Shown in pieces: positions 9,185 through 26,326 of a stretch of 26,326 nt of DNA. Source of the stretch: Clostridiales bacterium (GTDB taxonomy: Bacteria > Bacillota > Clostridia > Saccharofermentanales > UBA5734); contig SLMY01000065.1 in the NCBI GenBank assembly GCA_007133255.1, positions 1 through 26,326 of the forward strand, written 5' to 3'. Made by a program: the position numbers and the translations under genes. The notes under the pieces were generated by a model. It saw only the letters and a list, made by a program, of their open reading frames with translations. It was not told the origin of the DNA and did not search any database. The first letter of the stretch is position 1; each line of letters begins with the position of its first letter.

Positions 9185-9275
9185 GTCGGTATCTCCTGTG
9201 TTTTTGTGATTATGTGCCGCTGTATCTGCTTTTCCCAAAACTAAATTCTCTGCGCCGGATAAATCATCGCCAGCG

Positions 9276-10682
9276 TTATACTTTCTGCGGTATTTTCGCG
9301 GCAACGTCTTCCAGCCAGTCATCCAGCTGCCGGCTAAGTCTGGCCGCCAGTGCAGGATGTTGATCTGCTATATTTTTCGATTCCGCAATATCCTGTTCCA
9401 GGTCATACAACTCAATCCGGTCATCTTCAAAAAATCGAATCAGCTTGTATTGGTTCTGACGAAGCGCTGCGGCAGGTGTGCCGCCCTGGTTGCCATAATG
9501 CGGAAAATGCCAGAAGAGGGTATCGCGTTCAAGACTGGCCTGCTGTTTCTCGTCTGTCTGCTCCAGCAAGGGCAGTAAACTGACACCATCTACATGTTGC
9601 CGCGGCTTTAGGGGTAATCCAGCCAGCTCCAGCAAAGTTGGGTAAAGGTCAGGGGTTGTGACCGGTACTTCGCAAAAGGAACCTGGCCTGATCTTTTTTG
9701 GATACTGGATCATCAAAGGTTCACGAATGCCCCCTTCATACATCCAGCCCTTTCCTTCAGACAGCGGGGCGTTACAGGTTGGAGCGCCTTCAGAGGTTGC
9801 CAGGCCGCCGTTATCTGATGTAAAAATAATCGCCGTATCATCGAGCAGGTTCTTCTCTTTCAGGACCGATAATAATCTGCCGACATTCTGGTCGAGGTTT
9901 TTAATCATCGCCGCGTAGCCTGCATCTGACTGCAGGATCCGCCTGGTGACCTGCTGATCTTTCTTATGATCACTGGGGAAGTGTTCTCCTATTACAATCG
10001 GGTCAATCTGATCAAGTTTAAGCCGCTTCGCTTTTTCTTCAAAATAAGCGACATCTGCCGCAGGTGCCTGAATCGGAGTGTGTACGGCATAATGCCAGAA
10101 GTTCATAAAGAACGGTTTGTCTGATTCACGTTTCTCTATCAGCGCAATCGCTTCATCTGTCAGCCGGTCTGTCAGATAAGTTCCAGGTTCACTTTCACTT
10201 AGTGTTTTTATCCCCCAGGGCGCGAAGTAGCCGTTGACTGGATGACCCCAGTCGTTACCGCCGATATTGATATCAAATCCGTGTTTTTCCGGCCAGTAGT
10301 CCGGTGAACCCATATGCCATTTGCCAATATGCCAGGTCTGATAACCACCCTCTTTAAGTGACTTGGCCAGACTGACTTCTTCCAGAGGCAAGTGGTCAAT
10401 ATACGGCGCGTCTATGACTTTGCCGCGAGCAAAACCGCCGATATAGTTTGTCACGCCCACCCGGGCAGGATATTTACCGCTAAGCAGACTGGCTCTTGAT
10501 GGTGAACAAACCGGACAAGAGGCATAAGCCTGAGTGAAGGTCATACCCCCTTTACTCAGCTTATCGATAACAGGCGTTTCGTAAAAAGAACTGCCATAGC
10601 AGCCTAGATCTCGCCAGCCTAGATCATCAAGAAAGATTAAAACAATGTTGGGGCGCTTACTCGATCGTTCTTCTTTTTTCAT
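9276..10682 (-). CDS. Cys-type formylglycine-dependent sulfatase (cytoplasmic, arylsulfatase A-like family)
   Basis: PNIVLIFLDDLG, CSPSRASLLSG, IGKWHMG, YAVHTP, FTSDNG, KGWMYEGGIREP. No signal peptide; AAGGAG RBS. Confidence 0.95.
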   Translation of the reverse strand: MKKEERSSKRPNIVLIFLDDLGWRDLGCYGSSFYETPVIDKLSKGGMTFTQAYASCPVCSPSRASLLSGKYPARVGVTNYIGGFARGKVIDAPYIDHLPLEEVSLAKSLKEGGYQTWHIGKWHMGSPDYWPEKHGFDINIGGNDWGHPVNGYFAPWGIKTLSESEPGTYLTDRLTDEAIALIEKRESDKPFFMNFWHYAVHTPIQAPAADVAYFEEKAKRLKLDQIDPIVIGEHFPSDHKKDQQVTRRILQSDAGYAAMIKNLDQNVGRLLSVLKEKNLLDDTAIIFTSDNGGLATSEGAPTCNAPLSEGKGWMYEGGIREPLMIQYPKKIRPGSFCEVPVTTPDLYPTLLELAGLPLKPRQHVDGVSLLPLLEQTDEKQQASLERDTLFWHFPHYGNQGGTPAAALRQNQYKLIRFFEDDRIELYDLEQDIAESKNIADQHPALAARLSRQLDDWLEDVAAKIPQKV

Positions 10683-10991
10683 CTTCTGCTCCTTATCTTG
10701 CTACCACTTTTCTTTCGTGTTACCTTACTTTCATCCAAACAGGTGATGGTTTTTTGCTTTGCCTTTGCCAGTTCGCATTTCAAATCTCTTCATTTCATCC
10801 TTAGTTAACAAAGCTCGATTTATCTGAATTAAGCATTTGAGTCTCATCAAATCTGATTTTCTTAATCCATATTGAACTGAATCGACCTGATTCGATAAGT
10901 GAATATTTGCTCGGTTCGTTCTTTAACTGTATCGCAACATGCTAAAATGTCGCTTGATGTTTTCACCTATGTATGTCTGTTTAGCAGACGT

Positions 10992-12479
10992 CTACTTCTT
11001 TCGTCGAACGGCTTTCGTTATCGGCAGGCCGGTATCGTAATCAAGCTGACGGGGTTCAAAGTCCTCATCTTCCCGCTGCCGTGTCATTAAGGTATAGTCC
11101 CAGGTGGCTGGCCTCGCGTCTTCACGCCAGGAACGCCTTTCCCACATATAGCCACGGAACGGATCGCGCGTCTGGTTCATAAAGTCAAGAATAGCGTCAT
11201 GCAGCTGATCACGAATGGGCGCAACCCTTTTATCATCAATTAAATTGTGACATTCACCGGGGTCTTCTTCAAGATCATATAGTTCATCGGTCCACAACAG
11301 ATTGATCACCAGCTTATAGCGGCCGTCATAGGCGGCGCGCAGCGGCTGAAACCCGCCAAAGCCGTCGTGGTCAACTTCATACCGGCCAAACTCTATAAAG
11401 ATGGGTTCTGATTGCCGTGGCTGATCAGAAGTCAGCGCCGGCCAGAGATTTTTACCGCTGAAAATCGCAGGAACAGGAAGCTCCAAGGCCCCGAAGATAG
11501 TGGGCGCCATGTCTATATGGGAAATGGGTACGGCATCCGCGCTTCCTGCATGGATGCCTGGCCCGCTGATGATCAGCGGAATATGCGTTATTTCCTCATA
11601 GGCTGCCGGCCCTTTTCCAGATAGTCCGTGACTGCTAAGAAAGTCTCCATGGTCTGATGTATAGATAATCAAGGCGTCCGGGGCCGCTTCACGTACTTTC
11701 GCGGTTACACGGCCAATTTCACTGTCAACAAAACTATTACAGCCAAAAAAGGCCGGGGCTTTGATTTTAACTGGTTTTGATCGCTGATGTGGTGAGCCGG
11801 CCCAGGCTTTCTGGTGCTCTGGCTTATGTTCCAGTGTATCGTATACATTGTCTGAGACAGGAAACTCATAGTCCTCATACATCGAGGCGTAAGGCTCAGG
11901 ACACAGATAGGGACCATGTGGTTCATCGTAGGAAACCACCAGGAAAAAATCTTCCTGACTATGCTTGTCAAGAAAGTTAACAGCTCTGTCACTGCAGCGA
12001 TGCGCGAAAGTAAAGGAAGCGTCTATACCCTCCTGGTTTGTCTCGGGCCTTCGTGAACGAAGCCGATCCTCAGGAGACAGTTCGTCCAGATAGTTTTTCA
12101 TATCATACCAGTACGCCGGATCCCAGCCGGGCGGGCACTTGCCTAGACCAAAATAATCGCCGCCATCCAGATGCCATTTGCCAATATAAGCGGTGTGAAT
12201 ACCGTGTTTTTCAATTCTTTCACCTATTGAGTGTGCGTTTTCAGCGACACCAGCTGAATTAGTCCAGCTATTGACTTCATGCGGATACTGCCCGAAAAAA
12301 AGCGCCGCCCGTGCCGGCTGGCACACAGGCTGCACGGTATAGGCTTTGTCATAGCGGCATCCTTCCGCCGCAAGCTGGTCAAGACAGGGTGTACGAAGAC
12401 CTGTTTCACGATAGCAGCTTAGCATGTCAAAACGCTGAGTATCTGTCATAATAAAAACAACTTGTTTAGGTTTTGTCAT
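10992..12479 (-). CDS. yidJ: YidJ-like Cys-type sulfatase
   Basis: FIMTDTQ, CQPARAAL, YIGKWHLDGGDYFGLGKCPPGWD, SYDEPH, YEVDHDGFGGF and C-terminal DYDTGLP closely match E. coli YidJ as I recall it. Start moved to ATG 12479 (AGGAG RBS). Confidence 0.85.
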   Translation of the reverse strand: MTKPKQVVFIMTDTQRFDMLSCYRETGLRTPCLDQLAAEGCRYDKAYTVQPVCQPARAALFFGQYPHEVNSWTNSAGVAENAHSIGERIEKHGIHTAYIGKWHLDGGDYFGLGKCPPGWDPAYWYDMKNYLDELSPEDRLRSRRPETNQEGIDASFTFAHRCSDRAVNFLDKHSQEDFFLVVSYDEPHGPYLCPEPYASMYEDYEFPVSDNVYDTLEHKPEHQKAWAGSPHQRSKPVKIKAPAFFGCNSFVDSEIGRVTAKVREAAPDALIIYTSDHGDFLSSHGLSGKGPAAYEEITHIPLIISGPGIHAGSADAVPISHIDMAPTIFGALELPVPAIFSGKNLWPALTSDQPRQSEPIFIEFGRYEVDHDGFGGFQPLRAAYDGRYKLVINLLWTDELYDLEEDPGECHNLIDDKRVAPIRDQLHDAILDFMNQTRDPFRGYMWERRSWREDARPATWDYTLMTRQREDEDFEPRQLDYDTGLPITKAVRRKK

Positions 12480-12662
12480 AAAAGGCACGCTCCTGTATGC
12501 TTGATGCTTATTATTATAAGCTATCTTCACGAAGCGTGCTCGGTTGTTATTGTTTTCCATATTTATGTACTGAGGTGCAATAACTTCTATTTTCATCAGA
12601 GTTATTGTATACTGATGTCATATTCAGCCGATTAAGTTTCGGTCTGGTCAGGAGGATGCTGT

Positions 12663-13874
12663 ATGATAGCGAGAAAAGAGTATTTCAACAAGTTGTTGGG
12701 ATATAAGGATAAAAAAATTATCAAAGTTATCACCGGTATACGGCGCTGCGGCAAGTCAACACTGTTGCTGATGTTTCAGGAGTATTTGTTGAAAAGTGGC
12801 ATTGATGAAAAACAGATAGTTTCTATAAACTTCGAGGACTACGATTATGAGAGATTAAGAAATCCTAAAGAGCTTCATAGTTATATTAAGAGCAAGTTGA
12901 TTCCTGATAAGATGGTGTATATTTTCTTGGATGAGGTTCAAAATGTTGATGATTTTCAGAGAGTCGTTGATTCACTGTTATTAAGAGAAAATGTTGATAT
13001 ATATTTGACAGGCTCAAATGCTTACATGCTGTCGGGCGAATTAGCCACCCTGCTTTCAGGACGTTACATTAAAATCGACATGCTGCCGCTGTCTTTTACC
13101 GAGTTCGCAAGCGCAAGACAGAATGAAGGTAACATGAGCGCTGATGAATTATACCTTGAATACCTGGAAACAAGTTCATTTCCATTTGCTTTGACACTGG
13201 CAAAAGACATCAAACAGATCAAGGATTATTTAAGAAGTATTTATGACACTATAGTTGTAAAAGATGTTATCAGCAGAAAATCAATAGCTGATATCATGAT
13301 GCTTGAAAGTGTTTTGAGATTTTTGATGGACAATATCGGCAGCCAGCTCTCGACAAAGAAAATTAGTGATTCCATGACTTCTGATGGCAGAAGAATTAAC
13401 GTTAGGACTGTGGAGTCCTATGTGTCTTCTTTTGTTGAGTCCTATATTGTATACGAAGCAAAACGATATGATATCAAGGGGCGGCAGTATTTGAAAACGC
13501 TTGAGAAATATTATATTATCGACATCGGTTTACGCAATGCGATGCTGGGAGCCCGGCGGAGAGATACCGGTCACATTTTAGAAAATGTTGTATATCTCGA
13601 ATTGATAAGAAGAGGATATGACGTCTATATTGGCAAAATTGATGATGTCGAGGTTGATTTTGTATGTGAGCATGAAACGGGAATCAAATATATACAGGTA
13701 GCCGCGAGTGTTCGTGATGAGAAAACTCTGGCCAGAGAACTAAGACCGTTGGAAAAAATTGATGATCACTACCCCAAATATATAATGACATTAGACAGAG
13801 ATCCAATCGCGGATTACAACGGCATTAAACGCATAAACGCATTAGATTATCTGCTGCATAAAATAGATATTTGA
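12663..13874 (+). CDS. AAA+ ATPase (AAA_14 plus DUF4143-type C-terminal domain)
   Basis: Walker A GIRRCGKS, Walker B YIFLDEVQ, LTGSNA, C-terminal ILENVVYLEL...EVDFV...YIQVA; AGGAGG RBS. Confidence 0.88.
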   Translation: MIARKEYFNKLLGYKDKKIIKVITGIRRCGKSTLLLMFQEYLLKSGIDEKQIVSINFEDYDYERLRNPKELHSYIKSKLIPDKMVYIFLDEVQNVDDFQRVVDSLLLRENVDIYLTGSNAYMLSGELATLLSGRYIKIDMLPLSFTEFASARQNEGNMSADELYLEYLETSSFPFALTLAKDIKQIKDYLRSIYDTIVVKDVISRKSIADIMMLESVLRFLMDNIGSQLSTKKISDSMTSDGRRINVRTVESYVSSFVESYIVYEAKRYDIKGRQYLKTLEKYYIIDIGLRNAMLGARRRDTGHILENVVYLELIRRGYDVYIGKIDDVEVDFVCEHETGIKYIQVAASVRDEKTLARELRPLEKIDDHYPKYIMTLDRDPIADYNGIKRINALDYLLHKIDI

Positions 13875-13988: not shown

Positions 13989-15260
13989 TCAGGCTGACAG
14001 CTGCCGTTTTACCGTCAGCAGCTGAGGCTGACCGCGGCTAAGCAGCCAATAGGCCAGGATGGACAAGGTCAGTGTGAAGGCACCTGCCAGAAGTGTAGGG
14101 ACATAGACTTGAATGTTAAAGGCCTGGAAAAGCTGGCCATACAAAAGCTGGCCGACAGGGGCCGCTGCCTGCGCGGCGGTTCCGATAATCGCCATCACCT
14201 TGCCCAGCAGGTGATTCGGCGTTTCTTTCTGGATAATGGTCACCGCGTACACGGAAAGCATCGCCAGAATCATCATCACCGGCACAGCGAACAGGATGAA
14301 GCCCAGGTAAGCCGGCCAGTAGCCAAGACCGCGTATGTGGGGTGACATCGATAAAGCCATGGGCACTGTTAAAAAAGCCATTGTCGCGATCCAGCGGGGT
14401 AAACTGCTGAATTTAAGCCTGCGTGACAGACGGTCAACAGATAGAGCGCCGACAATACCGCTGAGCTGGATCGCACCCATCGCCGCGCCATACTGAATAT
14501 CACTGCTGGCCAGTGTGATACGTAAAACATACGGCATGCCGATAATGAAGAAAGGTGTCAGAAACAAATTGAGTGAGGCAGCCAGAATCATAGTCCTTGC
14601 GATATAGGGTTTCTCATGCAGGATAAACTTGAACCCGTCAATCATGTCTTGCTTAACGACGGTTACCAGACTGCCGGCCAGCTGGACACGTACATGCGGC
14701 ATCTTGATGAAAAGCTCCAGAATCGCCGACATCAGAAAAGCGGCAGCGCCCAGAATCAACAGCAGATTCAATCCAACCATATTATAAAGAATACCGCCCG
14801 CGATTGGGCCAGCCAGGTTGGAGAGCGCGGCAACGCCGCCGATAAGGCCATTGGCCCGGGCCAGGCCGTTTTCTGTAACCAGCGAGGGAATGCTGGCCCG
14901 CACAGTCGGCTGATAAAGACCGCTGATCAGGGTTAGTAAAGTGATGGTGATGCCTATCAGAAAAAGAGAAGACCGGTTGCTATAAACAGATCCGATGAAG
15001 ACGAGTACCAATATAAAGCTGGCCAGATCGAACCCGACCATCATGTTACGCCTGTTGAGCCGGTCCGCTACCGCTCCGCCAAACGGAACCAGGATGATGC
15101 CGGGTACAATTGACAGCGCCAGCAAGGTGGCGAAAATATCAGCTCTGCCGGTCCGGTCTAGAACATCTAAAGACAAGGCGAATTTTAATATCGCCGCGCC
15201 AAACACCGATATCACCTGGCCGCTGATTAATAGATTGAAATCCTTGTTAAGTACTTTCAT
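13989..15260 (-). CDS. MFS efflux transporter (DHA3/MefA/EntS-like)
   Basis: About 12 hydrophobic segments, MFS motif A GGAVADRLNRR, C-terminal IQKETPNHLLGKVMA motif. Confidence 0.9.
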   Translation of the reverse strand: MKVLNKDFNLLISGQVISVFGAAILKFALSLDVLDRTGRADIFATLLALSIVPGIILVPFGGAVADRLNRRNMMVGFDLASFILVLVFIGSVYSNRSSLFLIGITITLLTLISGLYQPTVRASIPSLVTENGLARANGLIGGVAALSNLAGPIAGGILYNMVGLNLLLILGAAAFLMSAILELFIKMPHVRVQLAGSLVTVVKQDMIDGFKFILHEKPYIARTMILAASLNLFLTPFFIIGMPYVLRITLASSDIQYGAAMGAIQLSGIVGALSVDRLSRRLKFSSLPRWIATMAFLTVPMALSMSPHIRGLGYWPAYLGFILFAVPVMMILAMLSVYAVTIIQKETPNHLLGKVMAIIGTAAQAAAPVGQLLYGQLFQAFNIQVYVPTLLAGAFTLTLSILAYWLLSRGQPQLLTVKRQLSA

Positions 15261-15435
15261 CGTCTGCCTCTTTCGTATCTTCTGCCTGTCTGCAACACAT
15301 AAAATGTGATTGTCCTATCCTTTGACGACCCATTTTCGATTTTGTTCTCAATCTGTTTGATTAATATCCTGTTGGTCTGAATTTGATTTGTTCTTATTGC
15401 TACGCTTATATTTATAATGTATGGCGGCCAAAAAC

Positions 15436-15471
15436 AAACCTGACTTTGGTCAGGTTTATAAGTCAGGTTTG
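15436..15471. promoter_or_regulatory. Palindromic operator A plus an extra half-site, upstream of the MFS exporter
   Basis: AAACCTGAC-TTTG-GTCAGGTTT (perfect 9-bp arms, 15436-15457) followed by a third half-site GTCAGGTTT at 15462-15470. Confidence 0.65.
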
Positions 15472-15603
15472 AACAAACAATCGTGCGTAATCCACTTTTA
15501 AGCCGCAGGTTTAGGTGGAGAGGGTTCACCTTCACAATTGATCTGTCTTAGCTATCGTTTTACTCTATGCATCCGTTATAATAGATATGAACCTTGTTCT
15601 CTC

Positions 15604-15615: not shown

Positions 15616-15648
15616 TCGCTTACCTGATCATGGATGGAGATTGCTTAT

Positions 15649-16491
15649 ATGTTACCCGTTATTAATTTTTTTGGTACACCCGTCACTCGGCTCATACTGG
15701 GAGACAACCCGTTCAGCGGGCACTCCTATATACCCGACAAAGCAACCAGTTCTGATATGATCGATTATTACACGGCCAATCAGATCATCAAAACCTTGTT
15801 TGACGCTGAGGAAGCTGGCTATAACACGATGCTGCCTCTGGCGGATCCCTTTATTATGCGGGTGCTGCGTCAGTATCGAAACGAAGGCGGCAAGATGCAC
15901 TTCATCTTTCAGCCTTACCCGGCCATTGATCTGGCAATCAACCTGCGCCAGATGCTGGAGCTGGAACCGATCGCTATTTATCATCAGGGCACAACAACCG
16001 ACGGCCTGCTTGAGGCTGGCGAGTTTGATACACTGATGTCTAATTTAAAACTCATCAAGAAGACAGGGCTGCCGGCAGGTCTTGGCACGCATGTGCCGGA
16101 GACTGTGCTTCGCTCTGAGCAGGAAGGCTGGGGCGCTGATTTTTATATGACCTGCCTGCATAATTCCCGCAAGCGCGGCGCTGAGCCCAGCGGCTTTCTG
16201 ACCGGTAAAGAAAAAACAATTCGCTTTTTTCAGGAAGACAGGCCTTTGATGTTTGATGTGATTGGGCAAGTGGATAAACCTTGCCTGGCCTTTAAGATTT
16301 TCGCCGGCGGCCAGATTTTTCTGGGGCAGGAGGATGAAGCGGTCAGCCGACTGGCGAAAGAAGCGCTTAGCGAGACTTTTAAGCTAATCAAGCCGTCTGA
16401 TGCCGCGGTTGTCGGTGTCTTTCAAAGAGATAAAAACGAGCTTTCTGAAAATGCCCGCCTGGCTCAGGAAGTATTAGACGCGCAGCGATAG
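15649..16491 (+). CDS. Conserved hypothetical protein, probable aldo/keto-reductase-like TIM-barrel fold
   Basis: VTRLILGDNPFSG...GYNT and CLAFKIFAGG resemble AKR-like beta-alpha motifs. Start set at ATG 15649 after GGAG. Function not recognised. Confidence 0.7.
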   Translation: MLPVINFFGTPVTRLILGDNPFSGHSYIPDKATSSDMIDYYTANQIIKTLFDAEEAGYNTMLPLADPFIMRVLRQYRNEGGKMHFIFQPYPAIDLAINLRQMLELEPIAIYHQGTTTDGLLEAGEFDTLMSNLKLIKKTGLPAGLGTHVPETVLRSEQEGWGADFYMTCLHNSRKRGAEPSGFLTGKEKTIRFFQEDRPLMFDVIGQVDKPCLAFKIFAGGQIFLGQEDEAVSRLAKEALSETFKLIKPSDAAVVGVFQRDKNELSENARLAQEVLDAQR

Positions 16492-16611: not shown

Positions 16612-16633
16612 AAACCTTACTTTCGTCAGGTCA
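16612..16633. promoter_or_regulatory. Palindromic operator B upstream of the ABC exporter
   Basis: AAACCTTAC-TTTC-GTCAGGTCA; the first 20 nt are 18/20 identical to operator A. Confidence 0.6.
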
Positions 16634-16720
16634 CATAAAAGACCTGTCGTTTTATTATAAAACCAGAAAACGAAAAGACCAGCCGGACAGGCGGCTGGAA
16701 ATAATGGGAGGTAACTCATA

Positions 16721-17641
16721 ATGAAGACACTGGAAACAAAATCACTGGATAAGTTTTATGGTAAGTTTCAAGCGCTGGATAAGGTAGACCTGACACTGGA
16801 ACAAGGAGAGGTACTCGGCTTTTTAGGACCGAACGGCGCGGGAAAAACAACAACGATCCGAATTTTACTGGGGCTGCTGCGAAAGAACAGTGGTGAAGCA
16901 AAGCTTTTTGGGCTTGACGCCTGGCAGGACTCCGTGAAGATTCATCGCCGGCTGGCCTATGTGCCTGGTGATGTCAATCTCTGGCCGAACCTGACTGGGG
17001 GTGAGGTGATTGATCTGTTCAGCAAACTGCGCGGCGGTATTGATTACAAGCGCAGAGAGCAGCTGATGAACCGCTTCGACCTGGATCCGACTAAAAAATG
17101 CAGTACTTACTCAAAAGGTAATCGACAGAAAGTCGGCCTGATCGCCGCTTTCGCTTCTGATGTTGATCTTTATATACTCGATGAGCCAACTTCAGGTCTT
17201 GACCCGCTGATGATGTCTGTCTTCCAGGATTGTGTTCTGGAGATGAAACAGCAGGGTAAAACAGTTCTGATGTCGAGCCATATTCTGGCGGATGTTGAGA
17301 AACTGTGTGACCGGATCAGCATCATCCGCAAAGGGCAGATTGTTGAGACAGGCAGCCTGTCACAGCTGCGGCAGAAAGCCAGGACAACGATTCTGGTTGA
17401 GACCGGTCGGCCGGTGACAGGTCTTGACACAATCGCTCCGGTTTATAACCTGCGCCAAAAAGACAATCAGTATCAGTTTGAGATTGATAACGCACATATT
17501 GACCCGGTTATGCAGTATCTGGCCGGGCGTCATATAAAACAGCTGACCAGCACACCACCCAGCCTTGAAGATTTATTCATGCGTCATTATGGTGATGAAC
17601 TGGCAGAGCTCAACAGCAGAAAGGAAGGCAAATCAGCATGA
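16721..17641 (+). CDS. ABC-2 type exporter ATP-binding subunit (TnrB2/NarA-like)
   Basis: Walker A GPNGAGKT, signature YSKGNRQK, Walker B YILDEPTSGLDP, H-loop SSHIL; GGGAGG RBS. Confidence 0.95.
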   Translation: MKTLETKSLDKFYGKFQALDKVDLTLEQGEVLGFLGPNGAGKTTTIRILLGLLRKNSGEAKLFGLDAWQDSVKIHRRLAYVPGDVNLWPNLTGGEVIDLFSKLRGGIDYKRREQLMNRFDLDPTKKCSTYSKGNRQKVGLIAAFASDVDLYILDEPTSGLDPLMMSVFQDCVLEMKQQGKTVLMSSHILADVEKLCDRISIIRKGQIVETGSLSQLRQKARTTILVETGRPVTGLDTIAPVYNLRQKDNQYQFEIDNAHIDPVMQYLAGRHIKQLTSTPPSLEDLFMRHYGDELAELNSRKEGKSA

Positions 17642-19239
17642 AGAAACAAGATTTTATCGGCACAAAATCATTAGTCAAACTGGCTCTGCGCCGTGACCGG
17701 ATCAGGATACCGGCCTGGGTACTGGCGATTGGTCTCTATTCAGCTTTGGTTATTGTCGCGTACGCTGAATTCTCAGCGAAGGAAATGCAGGAATTGATCA
17801 CGATGGCTTCGATCAGCCAGGGTATGCGGATGCTGGTATCGCCTATCGCTTCCGACCAGGTTGGACAGTTGGGTTCGTTCTTCTTGTTCCGGACATCCTT
17901 TTTACTCAGTATTATCGTTTCCATGATGAATATTCAGCTGGTTACTCGTCATACCCGGCACAATGAGGAATCTGGTTGTGCGGAAATGATCAGCTCCACG
18001 GTTGCCGGTCGGTATGCCAGCCTGGCGGCCAGCCTGATCACGGCGTTTATCGCTAATCTTACGCTTTTCGCGCTTTTTGTCCTTGGCTTTATCGCCAGCG
18101 GTCTTCCTTTAGAAGGTTCCATCGCGGCGGCAGCTTCGTTCGCCCTTATTGGCATGGTCTTTGCCTGTGTCGCGGCGGTGACGTCTCAGCTTTCTGAAAG
18201 CAGCCGCGGCGCTTCAGGGCTGGCATCTATCACTTTCGCGCTGGCCTTCTTCATTAACGCGATCGGAAACGTCATGGGAACTGTCCATGAGCAGTCGATG
18301 GGGTTTTCCAGCAGCTGGATTGCCTGGCTCTCACCTGTAGGCTGGGTTAATCAGACGCAGGCTTTTGACCAGAATCGTTTCGCTGTTCTGCTGCTGTTTG
18401 CCGGCCTCATGCTCATTTTATTCCCGGCAGCGGTCTGGCTTAGCAAACGCCGTGACATCGGGCGGGGGATACTGCCTGCCAGACGCGGCCCAGCCAGGGC
18501 GTCGCGCTTTCTGACCAGCGCTCCTGGCCTGGCCTGGCGCCTGCAGAGAAAAACACTGCTCAGCTGGATGGTGATCATGCTGCTGATCGGGATTACCTTT
18601 GGCGCTGTCAGCCAGGAGTATGGCGCTTCAATTGAGCAGATTGATGTTTTCCAGCAGTTTTTGCTGTCAGCCGACTATTTCATCTTCTCTATGATCGCGA
18701 TTGTTTCTTCGGTCCTGAGCTTGTTTACACTGCAAAGCCTGTTACGGATGCGTTCAGAAGAAGCAGAAGGTCCGCTGGAAACATTCCTCTCCACCCCTGT
18801 CAGGCGTTTCACCTGGATGCTTAGTTTTATCGGTTTCAGCCTTTTAGGAACGCTTGTCCTGTTGATTACATTCGCGTCTGGAGCGGGCCTCGCGGCACAG
18901 TCAAGCGCTTCGGAGACAGTTGAGTTTATCAAGGCTTCTCTTTATCATGGCAGTGCCATTCTTGTGATTGCCGGTCTGGTTATTACGATGTTTGGCCTGG
19001 TACCCAAAATAGCCAGGGGCTTTTCTTGGATCCTTGTCATGATCGCTGTTCTGATCGGACCTGTTTTAGGCCCGATGCTGAATTTACCTGAATCAATTCA
19101 TAATCTGTCTCCCTTTACACATATCGCTTTGCAGCCTGATCAGACATCCACCGCCGCGCTTGTCATACTGACAGGTATTGGACTGCTGCTCACCTTAACC
19201 GGACTTGCCGCGTTCAGCCGCCGTAGTTTAAAACTATAA
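17638..19239 (+). CDS. ABC-2 type exporter permease, 533 aa with two fused halves (TnrB3/NarB-like polyketide/ionophore exporter)
   Basis: N-terminal LALRRDRIRIPAW, TRHNEESG..EMI..T.GR, WLSPVGW, RRDIG.G, EEAEG.LE, LSPFTH and RRSL end motifs; many TM segments; ATGA overlap with the ATPase. Confidence 0.85.
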   Translation: MKKQDFIGTKSLVKLALRRDRIRIPAWVLAIGLYSALVIVAYAEFSAKEMQELITMASISQGMRMLVSPIASDQVGQLGSFFLFRTSFLLSIIVSMMNIQLVTRHTRHNEESGCAEMISSTVAGRYASLAASLITAFIANLTLFALFVLGFIASGLPLEGSIAAAASFALIGMVFACVAAVTSQLSESSRGASGLASITFALAFFINAIGNVMGTVHEQSMGFSSSWIAWLSPVGWVNQTQAFDQNRFAVLLLFAGLMLILFPAAVWLSKRRDIGRGILPARRGPARASRFLTSAPGLAWRLQRKTLLSWMVIMLLIGITFGAVSQEYGASIEQIDVFQQFLLSADYFIFSMIAIVSSVLSLFTLQSLLRMRSEEAEGPLETFLSTPVRRFTWMLSFIGFSLLGTLVLLITFASGAGLAAQSSASETVEFIKASLYHGSAILVIAGLVITMFGLVPKIARGFSWILVMIAVLIGPVLGPMLNLPESIHNLSPFTHIALQPDQTSTAALVILTGIGLLLTLTGLAAFSRRSLKL

Positions 19240-19259
19240 CAGCCGCTGGAGAAAGAAGG

Positions 19260-19520
19260 ATGATTATGCGACATGATGAGTCTTTTACTGATGATCAGAA
19301 TCAGTTTTGGTGGTCCTTTTCGCTGTTGATTGATTCACAGTCTGACATGTGGATTACGCATTGCTTTGATGATGTGACCATTCAAAGCCGGGAGAATCAG
19401 ACGCAGGTCTTTGGATCAGCAGAAGACATTTCTGCCGTATACGGACTGATCACGGGGCTGAGAGATATGGGCACAACCATACTTTATCTTGAGATTAAAA
19501 GAGAAAGCAAGGGTGACTAG
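19260..19520 (+). CDS. Small (86 aa) hypothetical protein, probable ACT/ferredoxin-like fold
   Basis: 20 bp after the permease stop, with GGAG/AAGGA RBS, and before the operon terminator. The segment W...FDDVTI...FG...D.SAVYGLI..LRDMG..IL resembles a small unnamed family I recall near MalT-like LuxR genes. Confidence 0.7.
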   Translation: MIMRHDESFTDDQNQFWWSFSLLIDSQSDMWITHCFDDVTIQSRENQTQVFGSAEDISAVYGLITGLRDMGTTILYLEIKRESKGD

Positions 19521-19621: not shown

Positions 19622-19654
19622 ACTGGCCGGCGGACAACGCTGGCCAGTTTCTTT
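19622..19654 (+). terminator. Intrinsic terminator closing the ABC exporter / small-protein operon
   Basis: ACTGGCCGGCG-GACAA-CGCTGGCCAGT (11-bp stem, one G-U) followed by TTCTTT. Confidence 0.75.
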
Positions 19655-19879: not shown

Positions 19880-21361
19880 ATGAATATACTGCTCGTTTAT
19901 CCTGAGTTCCCCGATACCTTCTGGAGTTTCAAACACGCGCTGAAATTCATACGCAAGCGTGCGGGCGCGCCGCCGCTTGGCCTGTTGACAGTCGCAGCCA
20001 TGCTGCCCAAAAGCTGGAACCTGCGCCTGATCGACCTGAACATAGAAAAGCTGAAGCAAGATGACCTGGACTGGGCCAATTATGTGATGATCAGCGCCAT
20101 GATTGTCCAGCGCGATTCAGCCACACAGTTGGTTGAACGCTGCAAAAAGGCCGGAGTAAAGATGATTGCCGGCGGGCCGCTGTTTACCATGGAATACAGC
20201 CATTTTCCAGATATTGATTACTTTGTCCTTAACGAAGCTGAGCTGACGCTGCCGCCTTTTCTGGAAGATCTGGAGAAAGGATGTGCCAGGCGTATCTACA
20301 GGTCTGCCAAATTTCCTGACATCCGTCAGACACCTATGCCGCTCTGGCATCTGGCGAAACTGAAATACTACGTCACCGTCTCTGTCCAGTTTTCAAGGGG
20401 TTGCCCATTCGGCTGTGATTTTTGCAATGTCACCAGCCTGCTTGGACATCGGCCGCGCACGAAATCAGCCGATCAGATGATTGGTGAGCTGGACAGTCTT
20501 TACCAGGCGGGCTGGCGCGGTGGTGTTTTCTTTGTTGATGATAATTTTATCTGCAATAAACAACAGCTTAAAACACAGCTGCTGCCAGCGCTGATAAACT
20601 GGCGAAAAGATAAAACAGGCATGCCGTTTAATACTGAAGTATCAATCAACCTGGCAGATGATCCCGAGTTGGTCAATCTGATGACAGAAGCTGGTTTTGA
20701 TACAATTTTTGTTGGGATTGAAACACCAAACGAAGACAGCCTGGCCGAATGCAACAAGTCTCAAAACAGGGGCAGGGATCTTCTGGACAGTGTCCGTTTC
20801 CTGCATGAATCGGGCCTGCAGGTGCAGGGCGGTTTCATTGTTGGCTTTGACAGTGACACACCTGATATTTTTGACCAGCAGATCAGCTTCATCCAAAAAA
20901 GCGGTATTGTCACAGCGATGGTTGGTTTGCTGCAAGCTCCGACCGGCACCCGTTTGTTTGAACGAATGGAAAAAGAGGGCCGGCTTGTCACTCATGATAT
21001 GTCGGGAAGTAATACAGATGGTTCGACCAATATTATCCCGAAGATGGGACTCGACAAACTTCTGGAAGGGTATCATCAGCTGCTCAGGCAGATCTACTCA
21101 CCGAAATACTACTATGCTCGTGTTTTGACGTTCCTGAGGCAGTGTCCGCTGCCTAAGATCAAATATCATCTGGATTTCCAGTATTTTCTGGCGCTCTGGC
21201 GCTCTATCATCCGACTGGGTTTATTAGGAGCAGAGAGGCTTCAGTTCTGGAAAATGTTTTTCTGGACATTGCTGCGTCGTCCGCGTCTTTTTCCGCTCGC
21301 CATTACCCTGTCCATTTACGGCTATCATTTCCGTAAAATCGCATATTCAGTTGCCAGATAA
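19880..21361 (+). CDS. Cobalamin-binding radical SAM enzyme (class B methylase-like, DUF4070/HpnP-related family)
   Basis: N-terminal B12-binding domain (YPEFPDTFWSF...PPLGLLTVAA...IAGGP), CxxxCxxC in RGCPFGCDFC, FFVDDNFI, FIVGFDSD, and a helical C-terminal domain. Confidence 0.9.
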   Translation: MNILLVYPEFPDTFWSFKHALKFIRKRAGAPPLGLLTVAAMLPKSWNLRLIDLNIEKLKQDDLDWANYVMISAMIVQRDSATQLVERCKKAGVKMIAGGPLFTMEYSHFPDIDYFVLNEAELTLPPFLEDLEKGCARRIYRSAKFPDIRQTPMPLWHLAKLKYYVTVSVQFSRGCPFGCDFCNVTSLLGHRPRTKSADQMIGELDSLYQAGWRGGVFFVDDNFICNKQQLKTQLLPALINWRKDKTGMPFNTEVSINLADDPELVNLMTEAGFDTIFVGIETPNEDSLAECNKSQNRGRDLLDSVRFLHESGLQVQGGFIVGFDSDTPDIFDQQISFIQKSGIVTAMVGLLQAPTGTRLFERMEKEGRLVTHDMSGSNTDGSTNIIPKMGLDKLLEGYHQLLRQIYSPKYYYARVLTFLRQCPLPKIKYHLDFQYFLALWRSIIRLGLLGAERLQFWKMFFWTLLRRPRLFPLAITLSIYGYHFRKIAYSVAR

Positions 21362-21576
21362 ACAGCTCACTATACATAATATAGCTTCACTGCCGTCTTA
21401 CGACGCCAGTATCACAAGCGCCTGCCGTGAAAAACCTGGCGCTTCACCCATGTTGCACTTTTCAAGCCTGGTTTTAGTCTGTATACTGGATGTTAAGAAA
21501 AACCCACTGTGTTAACTGAAACGTGAATCATGGCGCTTACAGTGCAGCCAGGCAGATATTCAAAGTGATTGTCTGC

Positions 21577-21602
21577 CTATAAAAGTATTATACGAGTGGA
21601 GG
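21577..21602 (+). repeat. Copy 2 of the 26-bp leader repeat
   Basis: CTATAAAAGTATTATACGAGTGGAGG; 24/26 identical to 6297-6322. Confidence 0.85.
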
Positions 21603-21609
21603 GGTGAAG

Positions 21610-22545
21610 ATGAATATTGACGCGCATGTACATTTAGTTGGTGATGGCTGGATAGAGGAACGCTTCTTTTTAAACCTGGCACGGCTTGTCGCTGCTGACG
21701 CGGGAAAATCGACAGGAACATTTCCAGAACCGGCTTCAATGCTGGACGCGATTAAAGACGCGTTGTTTGATACAAGCGGTGACACGCTGATCCGTGAAAT
21801 GGACGCGGCCGATGTGAGCAAAGCCTGCGTTTTCACTGTTGATTATGGACTTCTGACCGGCGAACCGGCTGTATCTATTGAACAGCAGAACAAGACAATC
21901 GCGGACGCTGTCAAGCGCTATCCCGACCGGCTTGATGGTTTTTTCAGCATCGATCCCCGGCGTCCCGGCGCGCTGGCGCTCTTTCGCCGCGGTGTTGAGG
22001 AATGGGGCCTGAAAGGTCTCAAACTTCATCCTGCTTCAGGATGGTATCCGTATGATGAAGCTTTTTTCCCGCTTTACCAGCAGTGCCAGGACTATCAGCT
22101 GCCGCTTCTGATCCATACCGGCGGCCAGCCGGCGCCCATGAAGTCTCGCTTTGGGCGGCCTGCCTATGTTGATGATGTCGCCGCGGCTTTTCCTGAGCTT
22201 AGCATTATTATGGCCCACTGTGGTTATAACTGGTGGGAAGAAGCGCTGATGGTCTGCAATATGAAGGCGAACTGCCTGGTTGATTTTTCCGGCTGGCAGC
22301 AGTCTTTTCTAAGATATCCAGATCATTTTTACCGAGTGCTGAGACAAGTGCTCGATACCATTGGCCCCTGGCGTATTCTCTTTGGTTCAGACGGCCCTTA
22401 TCTGAATGTTGTCTGTCCTTTGAAAAACTGGGTTGGCGCGTTTCGCGATCCTCAGAACTGGCCTGAAGGGATTACCTTTACTGATGATGAGATTGATATC
22501 ATCATGGGCCGGGCGTTCAGCCGGCTGCTTGATCCAGTCAATTGA
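21610..22545 (+). CDS. Amidohydrolase family 2 protein (TIM-barrel metal hydrolase/decarboxylase)
   Basis: IDAHVH, GLKLHP, LIHTG, IIMAHCG, DFSG, ILFGSDGP. ATG 21610 sits 7 nt after GGAGG. Confidence 0.92.
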   Translation: MNIDAHVHLVGDGWIEERFFLNLARLVAADAGKSTGTFPEPASMLDAIKDALFDTSGDTLIREMDAADVSKACVFTVDYGLLTGEPAVSIEQQNKTIADAVKRYPDRLDGFFSIDPRRPGALALFRRGVEEWGLKGLKLHPASGWYPYDEAFFPLYQQCQDYQLPLLIHTGGQPAPMKSRFGRPAYVDDVAAAFPELSIIMAHCGYNWWEEALMVCNMKANCLVDFSGWQQSFLRYPDHFYRVLRQVLDTIGPWRILFGSDGPYLNVVCPLKNWVGAFRDPQNWPEGITFTDDEIDIIMGRAFSRLLDPVN

Positions 22546-25285
22546 TCAACTTTGCCTGCCTGGCCCGGGCAACAGCTTGTGTTCTTCCCCGGACACCCAG
22601 TTTGCCGTAAATATTACTCGTATGCCACTTAACAGTCCCCAGCGTCAGAAATAGTTTTTCAGCAATATCCTGGTTTGACAGCCCCTGGCTGATCAAGGCT
22701 AAAATCTCCAGTTCTCTGGCGCTTAGCTTCTCAACCAGTTCCTCTATAGCGCCTGCATCTGCTAAAACGGCTGCTTCAACGGTATAGCTGATCGTTTCTT
22801 CCTGTTTCTGCCTGAGCTCACTGCCAAGCAGGAGCTTCACAAGCCGATCTGAAAGATGCCTGCCTTCAAATATGTTTGATCTGGCAGCAGGCAGCTTGTC
22901 AATGATTGAGATCAGTTGATCTTTTCTGTCGCTGAAAATCTGGTAATAACCCAATCCTGAACCCATTTCCAGTGCTTCAGTCAGCAAATGTTTTGCCCTC
23001 TTCGTCTGGTTTTCTATCATGGCTAACTGAGCCGCCAGCAGCTTTGCCTCTAATAAAAGCCCTTTGCAGTCACCTACCTCTACCTGTTCACTGACTTTTG
23101 CCAGTATCTGGCTGATCAGAGGGGGCTGGCGGCTTTCTTCTGCCATCATGATCTGCGCCAGGACCAGATAACCTTCTTCATGACCTGGGGTCACTAATCC
23201 GGTTTCCGACAGTCCGGCTTCTGACAGACAGTCTCTCGCGGCAGAAAGCTGGCCTTCCGCCATCATCACACGTGCTTTACGGACCGCGGCGGGAAAGGTG
23301 ATGAATGAAGGAAGCCTTACCTCCAGGTGAAGCAGCTCTATTTCCTTCAAAGTCCGCAGCGCGGCTTCATACTGTTTCTGAGAATAAAACAGATCTGCTT
23401 CGAAAAGATAATTCCAGCCAAGGCATGGTTTTTCTGGTTCGCTGAACAAAATGCCCCGCTCTACTGCCGGCCCGGCTTCATCTAGCTTGCCTTTTTCTCG
23501 CAGCAGCTCACCATATAAAGTCCAGAGTAATCCGGCGCGTGGTATGCTTGATAAGCCCGCAGCTTTCGCTTCACTGAGCAGCCTGTGAACCAGTGCCTCG
23601 GCTTCTTTCAGCCGTCCTGTCTTATATAGGCTGTAAGCTGTCTTGAAGCCTGTGTTCATCTGCAAAACCAGATTTCCGGTTTTACGGCTGCTGACCTGAG
23701 CCTGCTGGTAATAGTCGAGCGCCTGCTTTGCCTGTCCCGAAAACAGCTTGGCGTCACCTAGATAAATCGCTGTATTCATCCGCCAGTAATGATTTTCCGC
23801 CGAAAGCAAAGATAGCGCAGTCCTGGCATATTTCTCCGCCAGCTCGAACTCATTGATAAAAATAGCGTAATAAGCTTTTGTCGCGAATAACATCCCTTCG
23901 TATTCTTTTTGTTCCTGCTGCTCCGGGTAAGTGAGTGTGTCAGCCAAGTCCAAATACCGCTTCGCTTCTGCCTGTCCCTGGTGAATCAGGATATACAAGG
24001 TCATATGCGCCATCAGCCGCGGATACTTCATTTTAAGCGAATCCGGGAAATGATGCAGAATGACATATAGAAGGGACGGACCTTCCGACTTAAGAATTTC
24101 ATCATAATTGTCATGGATAATCTGACCCGCCTGGTCTGTCAGCTTACCTGAGATCATCTGCCGAGCCGCTTCTCCCGGTTCTCCATGTTCCAGAAACCAC
24201 TGGCCGGCACGGTTATACAGCGACGCGACTTGATCTGGCTGCTGGCTTTTTAGCTTAATGGCGAGCACATCAGCAAACAAAGGGTGGTAACGGTACCAGA
24301 TCCCCTGATCATCAAGAGGGATAACAAACAGGTTGATTGTTTCAAGCTGGGTGATCATGGCGGCACTACCCTGCTGCCGGGTAACCGCGTCGCAAAGATC
24401 AGCGCAAAAGCGTGTTAAAATACTCGTTTTTAAAAGAAACGCCTGTACAGTTCCGGTTTGCCTGGAGAAAACCTCTTCAATCAGAAAATGAAGGATATGC
24501 CGGTTGCTGCCTGTAAACTGCTCGATAAACGTGTCCTGGTCCTGCGTCGCGGCAAGAGACAGCGCGGCCAGCTTCAGCCCGGCAATCCAGCCTTCAGTTT
24601 TAGCAAATAAGGCTTTTCTTTGTCTGTCATTCAAACGTAAACCTTCACATTTCGCGAACAGGACATCGGTTTCAGTTTCTGTGAAAGATAACGTATTGAG
24701 ACGGATATCCAGCATGGCGTTTCTGGCACGCCATTTAGAAAGCGGCCAGGGTGGGTCTGAACGCGTTGTAATGGCAAGATGAACCTTGGGCGGCATATTC
24801 TCAATAAAGAAAATCATATGTTTGTGAAGGTCGCTGTTATGGATCAGGTGATAATCATCCAGAACAAGGATGATCTGTTTTTCAAGTAAAAACATCTCAT
24901 TCAGCAGCGGAATCAAAAAGTCTGGACTGCTTTGCTGGCTGGACACATCATTACCAGATGACTGTAGTAAAGCAAGCGCCCCTTTTCCAATCGCGCCATC
25001 ATCTGCCTGTAAAGCTGTAATGATATACATCCAGAAGCGCGTTACATCATTGTCAGCTTCATCGATTGAAACCCAGGCACAATGCATGTTTTTATTCTCA
25101 AGCCATTCACGGACTAGTGTTGTTTTTCCGTAGCCGGCTGGCGCGGAAAGCAAAGTGAGCTGACGGCTAAAATCCAGGCCTACACATAGATCCGCGTCCA
25201 GGCGTTCAATGATATTCTTTCGCGGGACAATGCTTTTATCAAGCGGCGGGACGATGGTTTTTATCTTCAGAAGTTGTCCTGTCAA
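22538..25285 (-). CDS. MalT-like large ATP-binding LuxR-family regulator (STAND ATPase, TPR-like sensor, LuxR HTH)
   Basis: LLKIKTIVPP start motif, Walker A APAGYGKTT, Walker B LVLDDYH, TRSDPPWPL, TEGWIAGLKL, C-terminal LSARELEILALISQGLSNQDIA...TVKWH. Likely TTG start at 25285 after AAAGGAG, rather than the track's 25363, which overlaps the upstream gene. Confidence 0.93.
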   Translation of the reverse strand: MTGQLLKIKTIVPPLDKSIVPRKNIIERLDADLCVGLDFSRQLTLLSAPAGYGKTTLVREWLENKNMHCAWVSIDEADNDVTRFWMYIITALQADDGAIGKGALALLQSSGNDVSSQQSSPDFLIPLLNEMFLLEKQIILVLDDYHLIHNSDLHKHMIFFIENMPPKVHLAITTRSDPPWPLSKWRARNAMLDIRLNTLSFTETETDVLFAKCEGLRLNDRQRKALFAKTEGWIAGLKLAALSLAATQDQDTFIEQFTGSNRHILHFLIEEVFSRQTGTVQAFLLKTSILTRFCADLCDAVTRQQGSAAMITQLETINLFVIPLDDQGIWYRYHPLFADVLAIKLKSQQPDQVASLYNRAGQWFLEHGEPGEAARQMISGKLTDQAGQIIHDNYDEILKSEGPSLLYVILHHFPDSLKMKYPRLMAHMTLYILIHQGQAEAKRYLDLADTLTYPEQQEQKEYEGMLFATKAYYAIFINEFELAEKYARTALSLLSAENHYWRMNTAIYLGDAKLFSGQAKQALDYYQQAQVSSRKTGNLVLQMNTGFKTAYSLYKTGRLKEAEALVHRLLSEAKAAGLSSIPRAGLLWTLYGELLREKGKLDEAGPAVERGILFSEPEKPCLGWNYLFEADLFYSQKQYEAALRTLKEIELLHLEVRLPSFITFPAAVRKARVMMAEGQLSAARDCLSEAGLSETGLVTPGHEEGYLVLAQIMMAEESRQPPLISQILAKVSEQVEVGDCKGLLLEAKLLAAQLAMIENQTKRAKHLLTEALEMGSGLGYYQIFSDRKDQLISIIDKLPAARSNIFEGRHLSDRLVKLLLGSELRQKQEETISYTVEAAVLADAGAIEELVEKLSARELEILALISQGLSNQDIAEKLFLTLGTVKWHTSNIYGKLGVRGRTQAVARARQAKLIN

Positions 25286-25310
25286 CGGTTGCTCCTTTCC
25301 CTGCTGCTTA

Positions 25311-26326
25311 TCACAGATCCAGCTGGCGGGCCAGCAGCGCGGCTTCAGTTCGGCTGCTGACACCCAGCTTACTGTAAAGCTGGCTTGTGTACCATTTAAT
25401 GGTTCCAGGCGACAAATATAATCTTTCGGAAATCGCTTTATTCGTCATTCCCTGGCTGATTAAGTGAAGCACTTCCTGTTCGCGATCTGACAAAGGTTCA
25501 ATAAGCGTCAGACTGTCAGCCGCGCTCTGTGAGACACCTTCGCTGATCGAGTCGGTTTTTTCATTTATTCGTGATTCAGGAAACAAAGACTGTTTCAATA
25601 TCAGCAGATTTTCTTTCTCATTTTGCGAGGTCACTTTCAGGTCAGATAGTACTTGTTTATACAGTGCAGCCAGATCCGTGTCTTCAACACTGTTATCGAT
25701 AACAATCTGAACTCGATGCGCAAAGACTGCCTGATTAACAGCCTTTTCCAGCAGCAAAGGTGCCGCTCTTTTCCTGCCGCAGCGCATGGCCAGCCTTGCC
25801 TGCAGTAATAATCCTTCAATGATCAGCTCAAGGTAGTCTTCTTCAGTCAGCGACTCAATGAGCGATGCCAGGATAGCTATAATCTGTTCCTGCGTTTCTG
25901 CCAGTTGCTTATCTGCTTTTTCTCTGTCTTTCGTCTCCATCAAAAAGAGATGTATAGAAGCGAAATATAGATGCGTCTGTCCCGGCTCCGGCTCTTTTGT
26001 GACCGAAAGAGTTGTGTTTTCCAGTATTTGGCTGGCCTGATCCATAAGATCCATCGCTAAATACAGACGAACGCGCAAAGCGGCAGCAGGCAGCAAAATA
26101 AATCGCGGCAGCCCTGCCTGTTCATCAAGCGACCTTATTCTTTCCGCGAACGTCAGCCCTTCCTGGTATTTTTGCTCAGATAAAGCCAATCTGATCCTGA
26201 ACAACAGGTTCCATGCTAAAGAAGGTTTTTCTGCCTCACTGATTAAAAGACCCCGCTGGATACATCTTCCCGCTTCATCAAACTCACCGCGCGCTCGCAT
26301 AATCTCACCTAGCAGAGTCCAGAGCA
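25311..26326 (-). CDS. Second MalT-like LuxR regulator, C-terminal part (5' end beyond the window)
   Basis: The frame stays open to the edge (LWTLLGEIMRARGEFDEAG...EKPSLAWNLLF), homologous to LWTLYGELLREKGKLDEAG...EKPCLGWNYLF in the downstream paralog. LuxR HTH LSDREQEVL...GTIKWY. Confidence 0.9.
   Translation of the reverse strand, partial: LWTLLGEIMRARGEFDEAGRCIQRGLLISEAEKPSLAWNLLFRIRLALSEQKYQEGLTFAERIRSLDEQAGLPRFILLPAAALRVRLYLAMDLMDQASQILENTTLSVTKEPEPGQTHLYFASIHLFLMETKDREKADKQLAETQEQIIAILASLIESLTEEDYLELIIEGLLLQARLAMRCGRKRAAPLLLEKAVNQAVFAHRVQIVIDNSVEDTDLAALYKQVLSDLKVTSQNEKENLLILKQSLFPESRINEKTDSISEGVSQSAADSLTLIEPLSDREQEVLHLISQGMTNKAISERLYLSPGTIKWYTSQLYSKLGVSSRTEAALLARQLDL

Follow-up and report, generated by a model that had tools for sequence, protein, structure and literature searches.

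Here we describe a family of small proteins that, judging by gene neighbourhoods, appears to be the one constant companion of a large subclass of MalT-like STAND-LuxR activators, its other neighbours being variable. The member from which the analysis set out is an 86-aa protein encoded at 19260..19520 (+) of the window, by which we mean the whole 26,326-nt stretch of DNA analysed. Comparison of loci shows a conserved unit of three parts: a MalT-like activator, an activator-dependent promoter bearing its boxes and, as the constant product, the small gene. Swappable cargo, often efflux- or detoxification-like, is attached to this unit. Our favoured reading goes further, and we give it about an even chance: the small protein would be both constant companion and primary target of this activator subclass, and would bind back to the regulator as a feedback subunit. 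The contact between small protein and regulator, the sign of the feedback and the identity of the protein that binds the boxes are each things that we infer.

The small gene is genuine and under purifying selection. Its ATG-initiated reading frame is preceded by a GGAG-rich ribosome-binding site, GGAGAAAGAAGG (19248..19259, +, by direct reading of the sequence), which starts 9 nt past the stop codon of an ABC-2 permease gene; since the spacing from that stop codon to the ATG is just 20 nt, permease and small gene are probably co-transcribed. Downstream, an 11-pair, 8-GC hairpin followed by a T-run (19622..19648, +) is the best terminator-like site of the region and is predicted to end the operon. 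A congener carries the same flanks in the same gene order, with 85% identity in the permease, 68% in the small protein and 86% in a radical-SAM protein; against the congener copy the small ORF has a dS of 1.43 and a dN of 0.157 (dN/dS 0.11), and dN/dS is 0.06 for residues 31-85. The original prediction had described this same arrangement, an 86-aa ORF with its ribosome-binding site standing last in an ABC operon and followed by a terminator, and had read a residue pattern (W...F..VTI...IL) from the translation, every quoted position of which is found in the protein (W31, F36, V39-T40-I41, T48, G52, D56, S58-A59, Y61-G62, L67-R68-D69, G71 and I74-L75). Homologues and an AlphaFold2 model, both taken up below, add to the annotation.

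The operon opens with a DrrA-like ABC ATPase gene (16721..17641, +), assigned by Pfam ABC_tran and DrrA1-3_C matches with TIGR01188 below cut-off, and continues with the ABC-2 type permease (17638..19239, +), a protein of 533 aa with two internal repeats whose start overlaps the ATPase stop and whose assignment draws on a weak ABC2_membrane_3 match together with the orthologue in the congener. Further upstream in the window lie two sulfatase and two HAD-type hydrolase genes (8456-12596, -) and an AAA_14/DUF4143 ATPase gene (12663-13874), all of which look ordinary.

Neither Pfam nor NCBIfam holds a match for the small protein of the window, and a word-indexed search with it returned only two close relatives. 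The window protein and these two were combined into a profile, with which an exhaustive HMMER search reached about 20 remote relatives of 79-111 aa (25-37% identity, E 1e-10 to 1e-4), which have in common the pattern W-x-[IV]...HLD-W-x-DYF-GL...DG-T-L-G-L-D-SAVYGLI-x-x-LRD-G-x-L-SL, and a second round added 62 clusters, every one annotated as hypothetical. The original prediction had likened the protein to a widespread unnamed family of ~70 aa. We checked the consensus given there by scanning metagenome contigs with the back-translated motif D-Q-A-A-L-H-G-x-L-x-x-I-R-D-L-G, which yielded at least 120 stretches from which 80 loci were taken. The wider family profile matches an ORF in 79 of the 80 motif-derived loci at E 1e-8 to 1e-20, and the consensus of these ORFs (YEIRV-G-LD--WS-WF-GL...DG-T-L-G...DQAALHGLL--IRDLGL-LLSV) reproduces the predicted one nearly letter for letter; ten of them were checked and match no Pfam or NCBIfam model. 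On this sequence evidence the predicted family exists, is large and is nameless, and the window protein is a divergent member of it, with profile-level homology extending over the whole domain.

Most close relatives belong to metagenome-assembled genomes from soda lakes, which span several phyla (Syntrophomonadaceae, Halobacteroidaceae, Limnochordia, Spirochaetaceae and Desulfovibrionaceae), and the window DNA itself occurs in soda-lake and alkaline-sediment sequencing runs. Within the window's own phylum the family is sparse, being present in 10 of 401 sampled genomes. The family search found no fused or longer forms, including fusions of regulator and small protein; three long HMMER matches considered as fusions were ruled out as HEAT-repeat look-alikes of the helix-2 motif. 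PADLOC returned no defence-system match save HTH-only ones.

What stays with the small gene across this diversity is the regulator. The original prediction had placed two MalT-like regulators 3 kb away, and both are found there on the opposite strand, at 22538-25363 and from 25311 to the contig end. The first (22538..25363, -) is a MalT-like STAND activator of 941 aa, assigned by Pfam and NCBIfam matches and by orthology, whose P-loop NOD, TPR_MalT sensor and GerE HTH give it a MalT/LAL-type architecture (AAA_16 at 48-180, TPR_MalT at 494-823, GerE at 879-933). It aligns end to end with NF003420 and scores 374.7 bits against a MalT equivalog cut-off of 537, and because it falls below that cut-off we call it MalT-like rather than a MalT orthologue. 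The second MalT-like LuxR gene (25311..26324, -) is cut by the contig end; the two genes overlap by 53 nt (25311-25363) on the minus strand and are probably co-transcribed. A third MalT-like gene, on another contig of the same genome, has no small gene detected beside it.

Three independent samples of loci were compared with the neighbourhood of the 941-aa regulator. In sample (a), drawn from profile matches in 400 genomes of the phylum with 20-kb neighbourhoods, 8 of 11 loci carry a MalT-like gene (~890 aa, 313-385 bits to the 941-aa regulator) on the same strand 105-1006 bp away, upstream of the small gene in seven of the eight. Sample (b) comprises 22 loci obtained with a degenerate DNA pattern from species genomes, including soda-lake genomes; here a regulator lies within 2.2 kb in 14, mostly head to head with the small gene, and at 700-920 bits to the 941-aa protein these regulators are taken as its orthologues. 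Sample (c) consists of 79 metagenome loci of the DQAALHG type, many of them on contigs too short to judge, and has a regulator within 1.1 kb in 35 loci, 28 of them with the regulator upstream on the same strand (median gap 201 bp). Counted within 2.5 kb, a MalT-like gene is thus present in 8/11, 14/22 and 35/79 loci of the three samples, respectively; where each side of the locus extends for 1.5 kb or more, the counts are 7/8, 7/9 and 9/14. The gap between small gene and regulator is usually 100-400 bp, with sample medians of 200-360 bp, and roughly a quarter to a third of the well-flanked loci have no MalT-like gene within reach. As a control, five genomes of 2.4-4.6 Mb were considered, each with only 2-6 MalT-like genes. 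They hold six small genes, and every one (6/6) adjoins the MalT-like gene that best matches the window's regulator over its full length, where chance adjacency would amount to less than 1% per gene. The association with malT-like luxR genes that had been proposed is therefore recovered in three samples and in the five-genome control. By sequence, the 941-aa protein is an orthologue of the regulators that adjoin the small gene elsewhere.

The DNA between these genes offers a further line of comparison in the form of candidate operators. Intergenic regions of the family loci have in common an 18-bp palindrome, ACCTGAC-N4-GTCAGGT, of which the window holds two copies against 0.11 expected by chance (with a looser search pattern), while 655 kb of family loci contain 8 sites with at most two mismatches against 0.9 expected. 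Overall the palindrome precedes the small gene, or the operon containing it, by 50-90 nt, and at six loci outside the window its distance to the start of the small ORF itself is 51-89 nt. In all 10 of the 10 promoters compared, a -10-like hexamer follows exactly 21 nt past the palindrome without a -35 consensus, which is the geometry of class II activator-dependent promoters.

Both window copies were located by pattern search and conform to this arrangement. At the promoter of the ABC operon, the copy op2 (ACCTTAC-TTTC-GTCAGGT, one mismatch; 16614..16631, +) overlaps the -35 position, and the -10 box TATTAT (16653..16658, +) is exactly 21 nt past it; op2 and TATTAT head the operon of ABC ATPase, permease and small gene, so that at the sequence level this promoter, too, has boxes in place of a -35. 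The palindromic operator and the feedback wiring put forward in the original prediction are in this respect present at the DNA level, op2 lying ahead of the exporter operon to which the small gene belongs. The 5' leader of this operon contains a GC-rich hairpin, CCAGCCGG-ACAG-GCGGCTGG (16679-16698), downstream of the -10 box and ahead of the ribosome-binding site, which could be a leader structure or an attenuator. The other copy, op1, is a perfect palindrome (ACCTGAC-TTTG-GTCAGGT, 15438..15455) with an extra ACCTGAC half-site (15462-15468) 6 nt upstream; on the minus strand, a TATAAA (15411-15416) follows 21 nt further, facing the gene of an MFS efflux-type transporter (13989..15260, -; Pfam MFS_1, TIGR00900). 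Going by this promoter geometry, the same regulator probably acts through op1 on the MFS gene as well. The op1 palindrome and its half-site fall inside a spurious 92-aa ORF (15257-15535) on the minus strand. On the other side of op1, a 285-aa gene (15634-16491) matches no family and lacks a good -10 at the expected spacing.

Beyond the ACCTGAC group, the wider family has other heptamer repeats between regulator and small gene (ATCACCC, ATCCCCC, AACACC/CACACT and AATACTC), placed ~21-23 nt before the -10, and each type of box pairs with its own recognition helix in the adjacent regulator (VKWH-T/S-N, VRSH-x-K, VKGHNRR and ARKHVSN). This co-variation of box and helix suggests that the adjacent regulator reads the boxes. 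In the window, the recognition helix of the 941-aa regulator, GTVKWHTSNIYGKLGV, matches the helices found with ACCTGAC boxes: it carries the VKWHTSNIYGKLGV helix of that group, which the truncated second regulator does not. As its recognition helix is a different one, the second MalT-like protein is probably not the reader of the ACCTGAC boxes.

The remaining neighbours vary from locus to locus and include GNAT, CAAX protease, ApbA-like reductase, DUF6326/DUF4386, TipAS-MerR, S41 peptidase, solute-binding proteins, amidohydrolase and GMC oxidoreductase genes. Translational coupling of the small gene to a large gene downstream is frequent in the close clade. At five loci this coupled gene, whose start the small gene overlaps, encodes ~900 aa with PPDK_N and PEP-utiliser mobile domains, a rifampicin-phosphotransferase-like kinase architecture that suggests antibiotic- or xenobiotic-inducible cargo. 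At three Spirochaetaceae loci it encodes an MMPL/RND-type transporter, one of which carries a fused LolA-like domain, and at two loci an alpha/beta hydrolase. An ABC-2 exporter as cargo is confined to the genus of the window and one metagenome locus. The exporters, which had been proposed as part of the module, are lineage-specific cargo and lie outside its conserved core; ABC genes are absent from nearly all loci outside the genus.

The same distribution bears on the idea that the small protein is an accessory subunit of the ABC-2 exporter, for instance a cytoplasmic regulator of the DrrA-like ATPase specific to this operon. The small gene is indeed the last gene of the ABC operon in both window and congener, one metagenome locus has an ABC-2 permease just upstream of it and another has HlyD and ABC genes nearby; but with ABC genes missing almost everywhere outside the genus, and with the regulator as the constant neighbour, we consider such a subunit very unlikely. 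Particular to the window is its layout, in which the small gene has shifted from the first to the last position of an inserted ABC-2 exporter operon. Its regulator is encoded convergently at a distance of 3 kb, beyond two genes (radical-SAM and amidohydrolase), an arrangement also found at L028 and L139, and as in the window, L095 and L139 have cargo genes between regulator and small gene. The intervening genes, a B12-binding radical-SAM/DUF4070 gene and an Amidohydro_2 gene (19880-22545), are kept in the congener but occur at no other family locus. The PADLOC candidate model PDC-M51A gives a weak match to the radical-SAM protein (E 4e-10).

That radical-SAM enzyme raises a further alternative, in which the small gene would encode a RiPP precursor peptide for it. 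Proximity speaks for this, the B12/radical-SAM/DUF4070 gene lying 360 nt downstream and being syntenic in the congener. It is nonetheless disfavoured to the point that we give it next to no weight: a terminator separates the two genes, the small protein has a confidently predicted globular fold and is conserved along its whole domain, a division into leader and core with a co-occurring maturase is not seen, and the radical-SAM gene is missing from every locus other than those of window and congener.

The fold itself was predicted with AlphaFold2 on a 73-sequence alignment. The model (pLDDT 81) has strands at 16-24, 39-44, 47-54 and 74-83, a short helix at 32-35 and a long one at 57-69, and this second helix is the most conserved segment of the family alignment across phyla. 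Foldseek against the PDB gave nothing at E <= 0.001, and a PDB sequence search with the family profiles gave nothing meaningful. In an exhaustive structural search, the top matches are ACT domains of acetohydroxyacid synthase small subunits (2pc6, Z 8.4, rmsd 6.4 Å over 80 residues; 6u9h, Z 8.0, rmsd 2.1 Å over 68 residues), followed by the PII-like SbtB (6mm2, Z 7.6), the stand-alone RAM protein 2zbc (Z 6.2), RAM modules of Lrp/AsnC, HMA domains and designed ferredoxin folds, in a tool for which Z values of 7-8 are the usual background for unrelated models. The window protein matches no ACT family profile, and ACT is absent among the families matched by the 73 members at E up to 0.1. The description of the protein as ACT-like therefore holds for the topology, as the strands and helices of the model and the presence of ACT among the top structural matches indicate, but does not carry over to membership of the ACT family, given the missing profile match and the generic character of the fold matches. 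By sequence and model, the protein is a cytoplasmic, ferredoxin-like member of the nameless YEIRV...DQAALHG...IRDLGL family.

Topology and size are also what the small protein shares with ACT, RAM and PII-like modules more generally, without a sequence-profile match or an identifiable ligand site and at background Z. One could imagine that, like such modules, it binds a small molecule such as a xenobiotic and either presents it to the TPR sensor or buffers it, acting as a co-sensor or sequestering protein. The appearance of ACT domains, SbtB and stand-alone RAM modules at the head of the structural search is consistent with this, as is cargo rich in resistance- and detoxification-like genes (RPH-like kinases, MMPL, ABC-2 and MFS transporters, a TipAS-MerR neighbour). 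We regard it as distinctly unlikely, for neither ACT nor RAM profiles match, the Z values lie at background, and the best-conserved surface hardly differs between phyla even as the chemistry of the cargo does, which ill fits a site for diverse ligands; moreover, a co-sensor that is made only after induction would be awkward.

In sequence searches, the only named family to recur is WCX (PF25583), which 20 of the 73 members match weakly (best E 5.6e-5). At the PF25583 gathering cut-off of 23.9 bits, neither the window protein nor anything in the window's own genome matches; hhalign of the wider family profile against 30 canonical WCX segments gives a probability of 75% (E 2.4e-5, 55 columns). 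WCX is the C-terminal ferredoxin-like domain of the WYL transcription factors PafBC, DriD, CapW and BrxR, and dimerises through a C-terminal helix alpha-3 that follows a conserved cis-proline (PMC6789036). The weak matches of family members constitute a likeness to WCX, but the window protein stands alone rather than C-terminal to a WYL domain and has neither the cis-proline nor helix alpha-3, the model ending after beta-4. We accordingly rejected filing this stand-alone protein of 86 aa as a WCX domain; WCX is its nearest named family, by a weak relationship.

How might such a protein work? We propose that the activator encoded at 22538-25363 would bind the ACCTGAC-N4-GTCAGGT boxes in place of a -35 at two promoters, one driving the ABC-2 exporter operon with the small protein as its last gene and the other driving the MFS exporter. 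Once made, the small protein would most likely bind back to the regulator, presumably through the invariant face of helix 2 (D-x-SAVYGLI-x-x-LRD-x-G), and serve as a feedback subunit that tunes its off/on switch, with anti-activation the more probable effect, in the manner of MalK, MalY and Aes on MalT or of TraM on TraR. Four considerations lead us to favour feedback: the small protein shares the fate of the regulator rather than that of any cargo; its predicted fold is that of trans-acting regulatory modules; one helix face is nearly invariant across phyla, as would fit a protein partner rather than varied ligands; and small anti-activators induced by their activator are a known design. Distances between small proteins correlate with those between regulator domains in a Mantel-type comparison (NOD 0.69, arm 0.69, sensor 0.68, HTH 0.37), values that do not separate interaction from co-inheritance because co-inheritance alone would yield them, and that do not discriminate between the readings weighed here. 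Counting against the feedback reading are the absence of fused forms and the well-flanked loci that have no MalT-like gene within reach; a mere favourite target of the regulator, too, would be expected to show the same synteny and the same boxes. In the window, moreover, the small protein may have a role tied to the exporter, since its gene is 3 kb from the regulator, convergent with it and third in the exporter operon.

Known circuits provide precedents for either outcome. TraM is an all-helical anti-activator of TraR, and its gene is activated by the LuxR-type regulator that it adjoins. AfsS is a disordered protein of 63 aa, encoded directly downstream of the STAND regulator AfsR as its primary target. 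By analogy, both resemble the present case in that a small-protein gene adjoins a LuxR-type or STAND regulator and is activated by it, although neither protein is homologous to ours and the regulators belong to other subclasses. The AfsS parallel underlies the main rival to our reading, namely that the small protein is an output effector: a conserved first target that would act elsewhere, on RNA polymerase, another regulator or a general stress target, without feedback on the MalT-like protein. In most loci the small gene stands first behind the regulator's own boxes, which fits such an effector, as do the variable cargo and the well-flanked loci that lack a nearby regulator. Yet the protein has no relation to AfsS in sequence or fold, and a generic effector should spread beyond its regulators, where this family is found almost only beside one regulator class; we judge the effector reading to be on the unlikely side.

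For the feedback reading the closest comparison is MalT itself, whose protein inhibitors in E. coli are MalK, MalY and Aes (PMC10427625, PMC4381067). MalT, too, belongs to the STAND activators (P-loop NOD, arm, TPR-like sensor, LuxR HTH) and recognises repeated boxes in the -35 region; its modulator MalK is encoded within its own regulon, closing a feedback loop. The ABC transporter context of the window is reminiscent of MalK. The modulators of MalT differ from the small protein in being enzymes or a transporter subunit with other jobs, and are unrelated to it; the candidate partner here would be a dedicated protein of 70-90 aa, kept with its regulator across phyla. A described small partner of LAL/MalT-like regulators was not found in the literature searched, whose coverage is partial and which is weak evidence of absence. 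The promoter logic is MalT/LuxR-like. The circuit would thus be of MalT type, with as its new element a dedicated small protein that is itself undescribed and matches no described family or partner.

MalT/LAL-type STAND regulators are numerous and govern genes of efflux, resistance and secondary metabolism, and few of them have a known signal. If our reading is true, a conserved small first target and possible modulator would add a general component to the model of STAND activation, and would explain a large family of small proteins now annotated as hypothetical. More broadly, and only tentatively, a large MalT-like subclass across many phyla might consist of two-protein switches, in which a dedicated, activator-induced, ferredoxin-like subunit of 70-90 residues binds the NOD/arm or the sensor and sets the activation threshold; such a switch, if true, would add a general, undescribed layer to the control of STAND proteins and help to de-orphan these regulators. 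Experiments could start simply, from a small gene, its regulator and a single promoter whose boxes are defined. In the uncultured soda-lake Clostridiales bacterium considered here, the predicted regulon would comprise an ABC-2 exporter and an MFS exporter.
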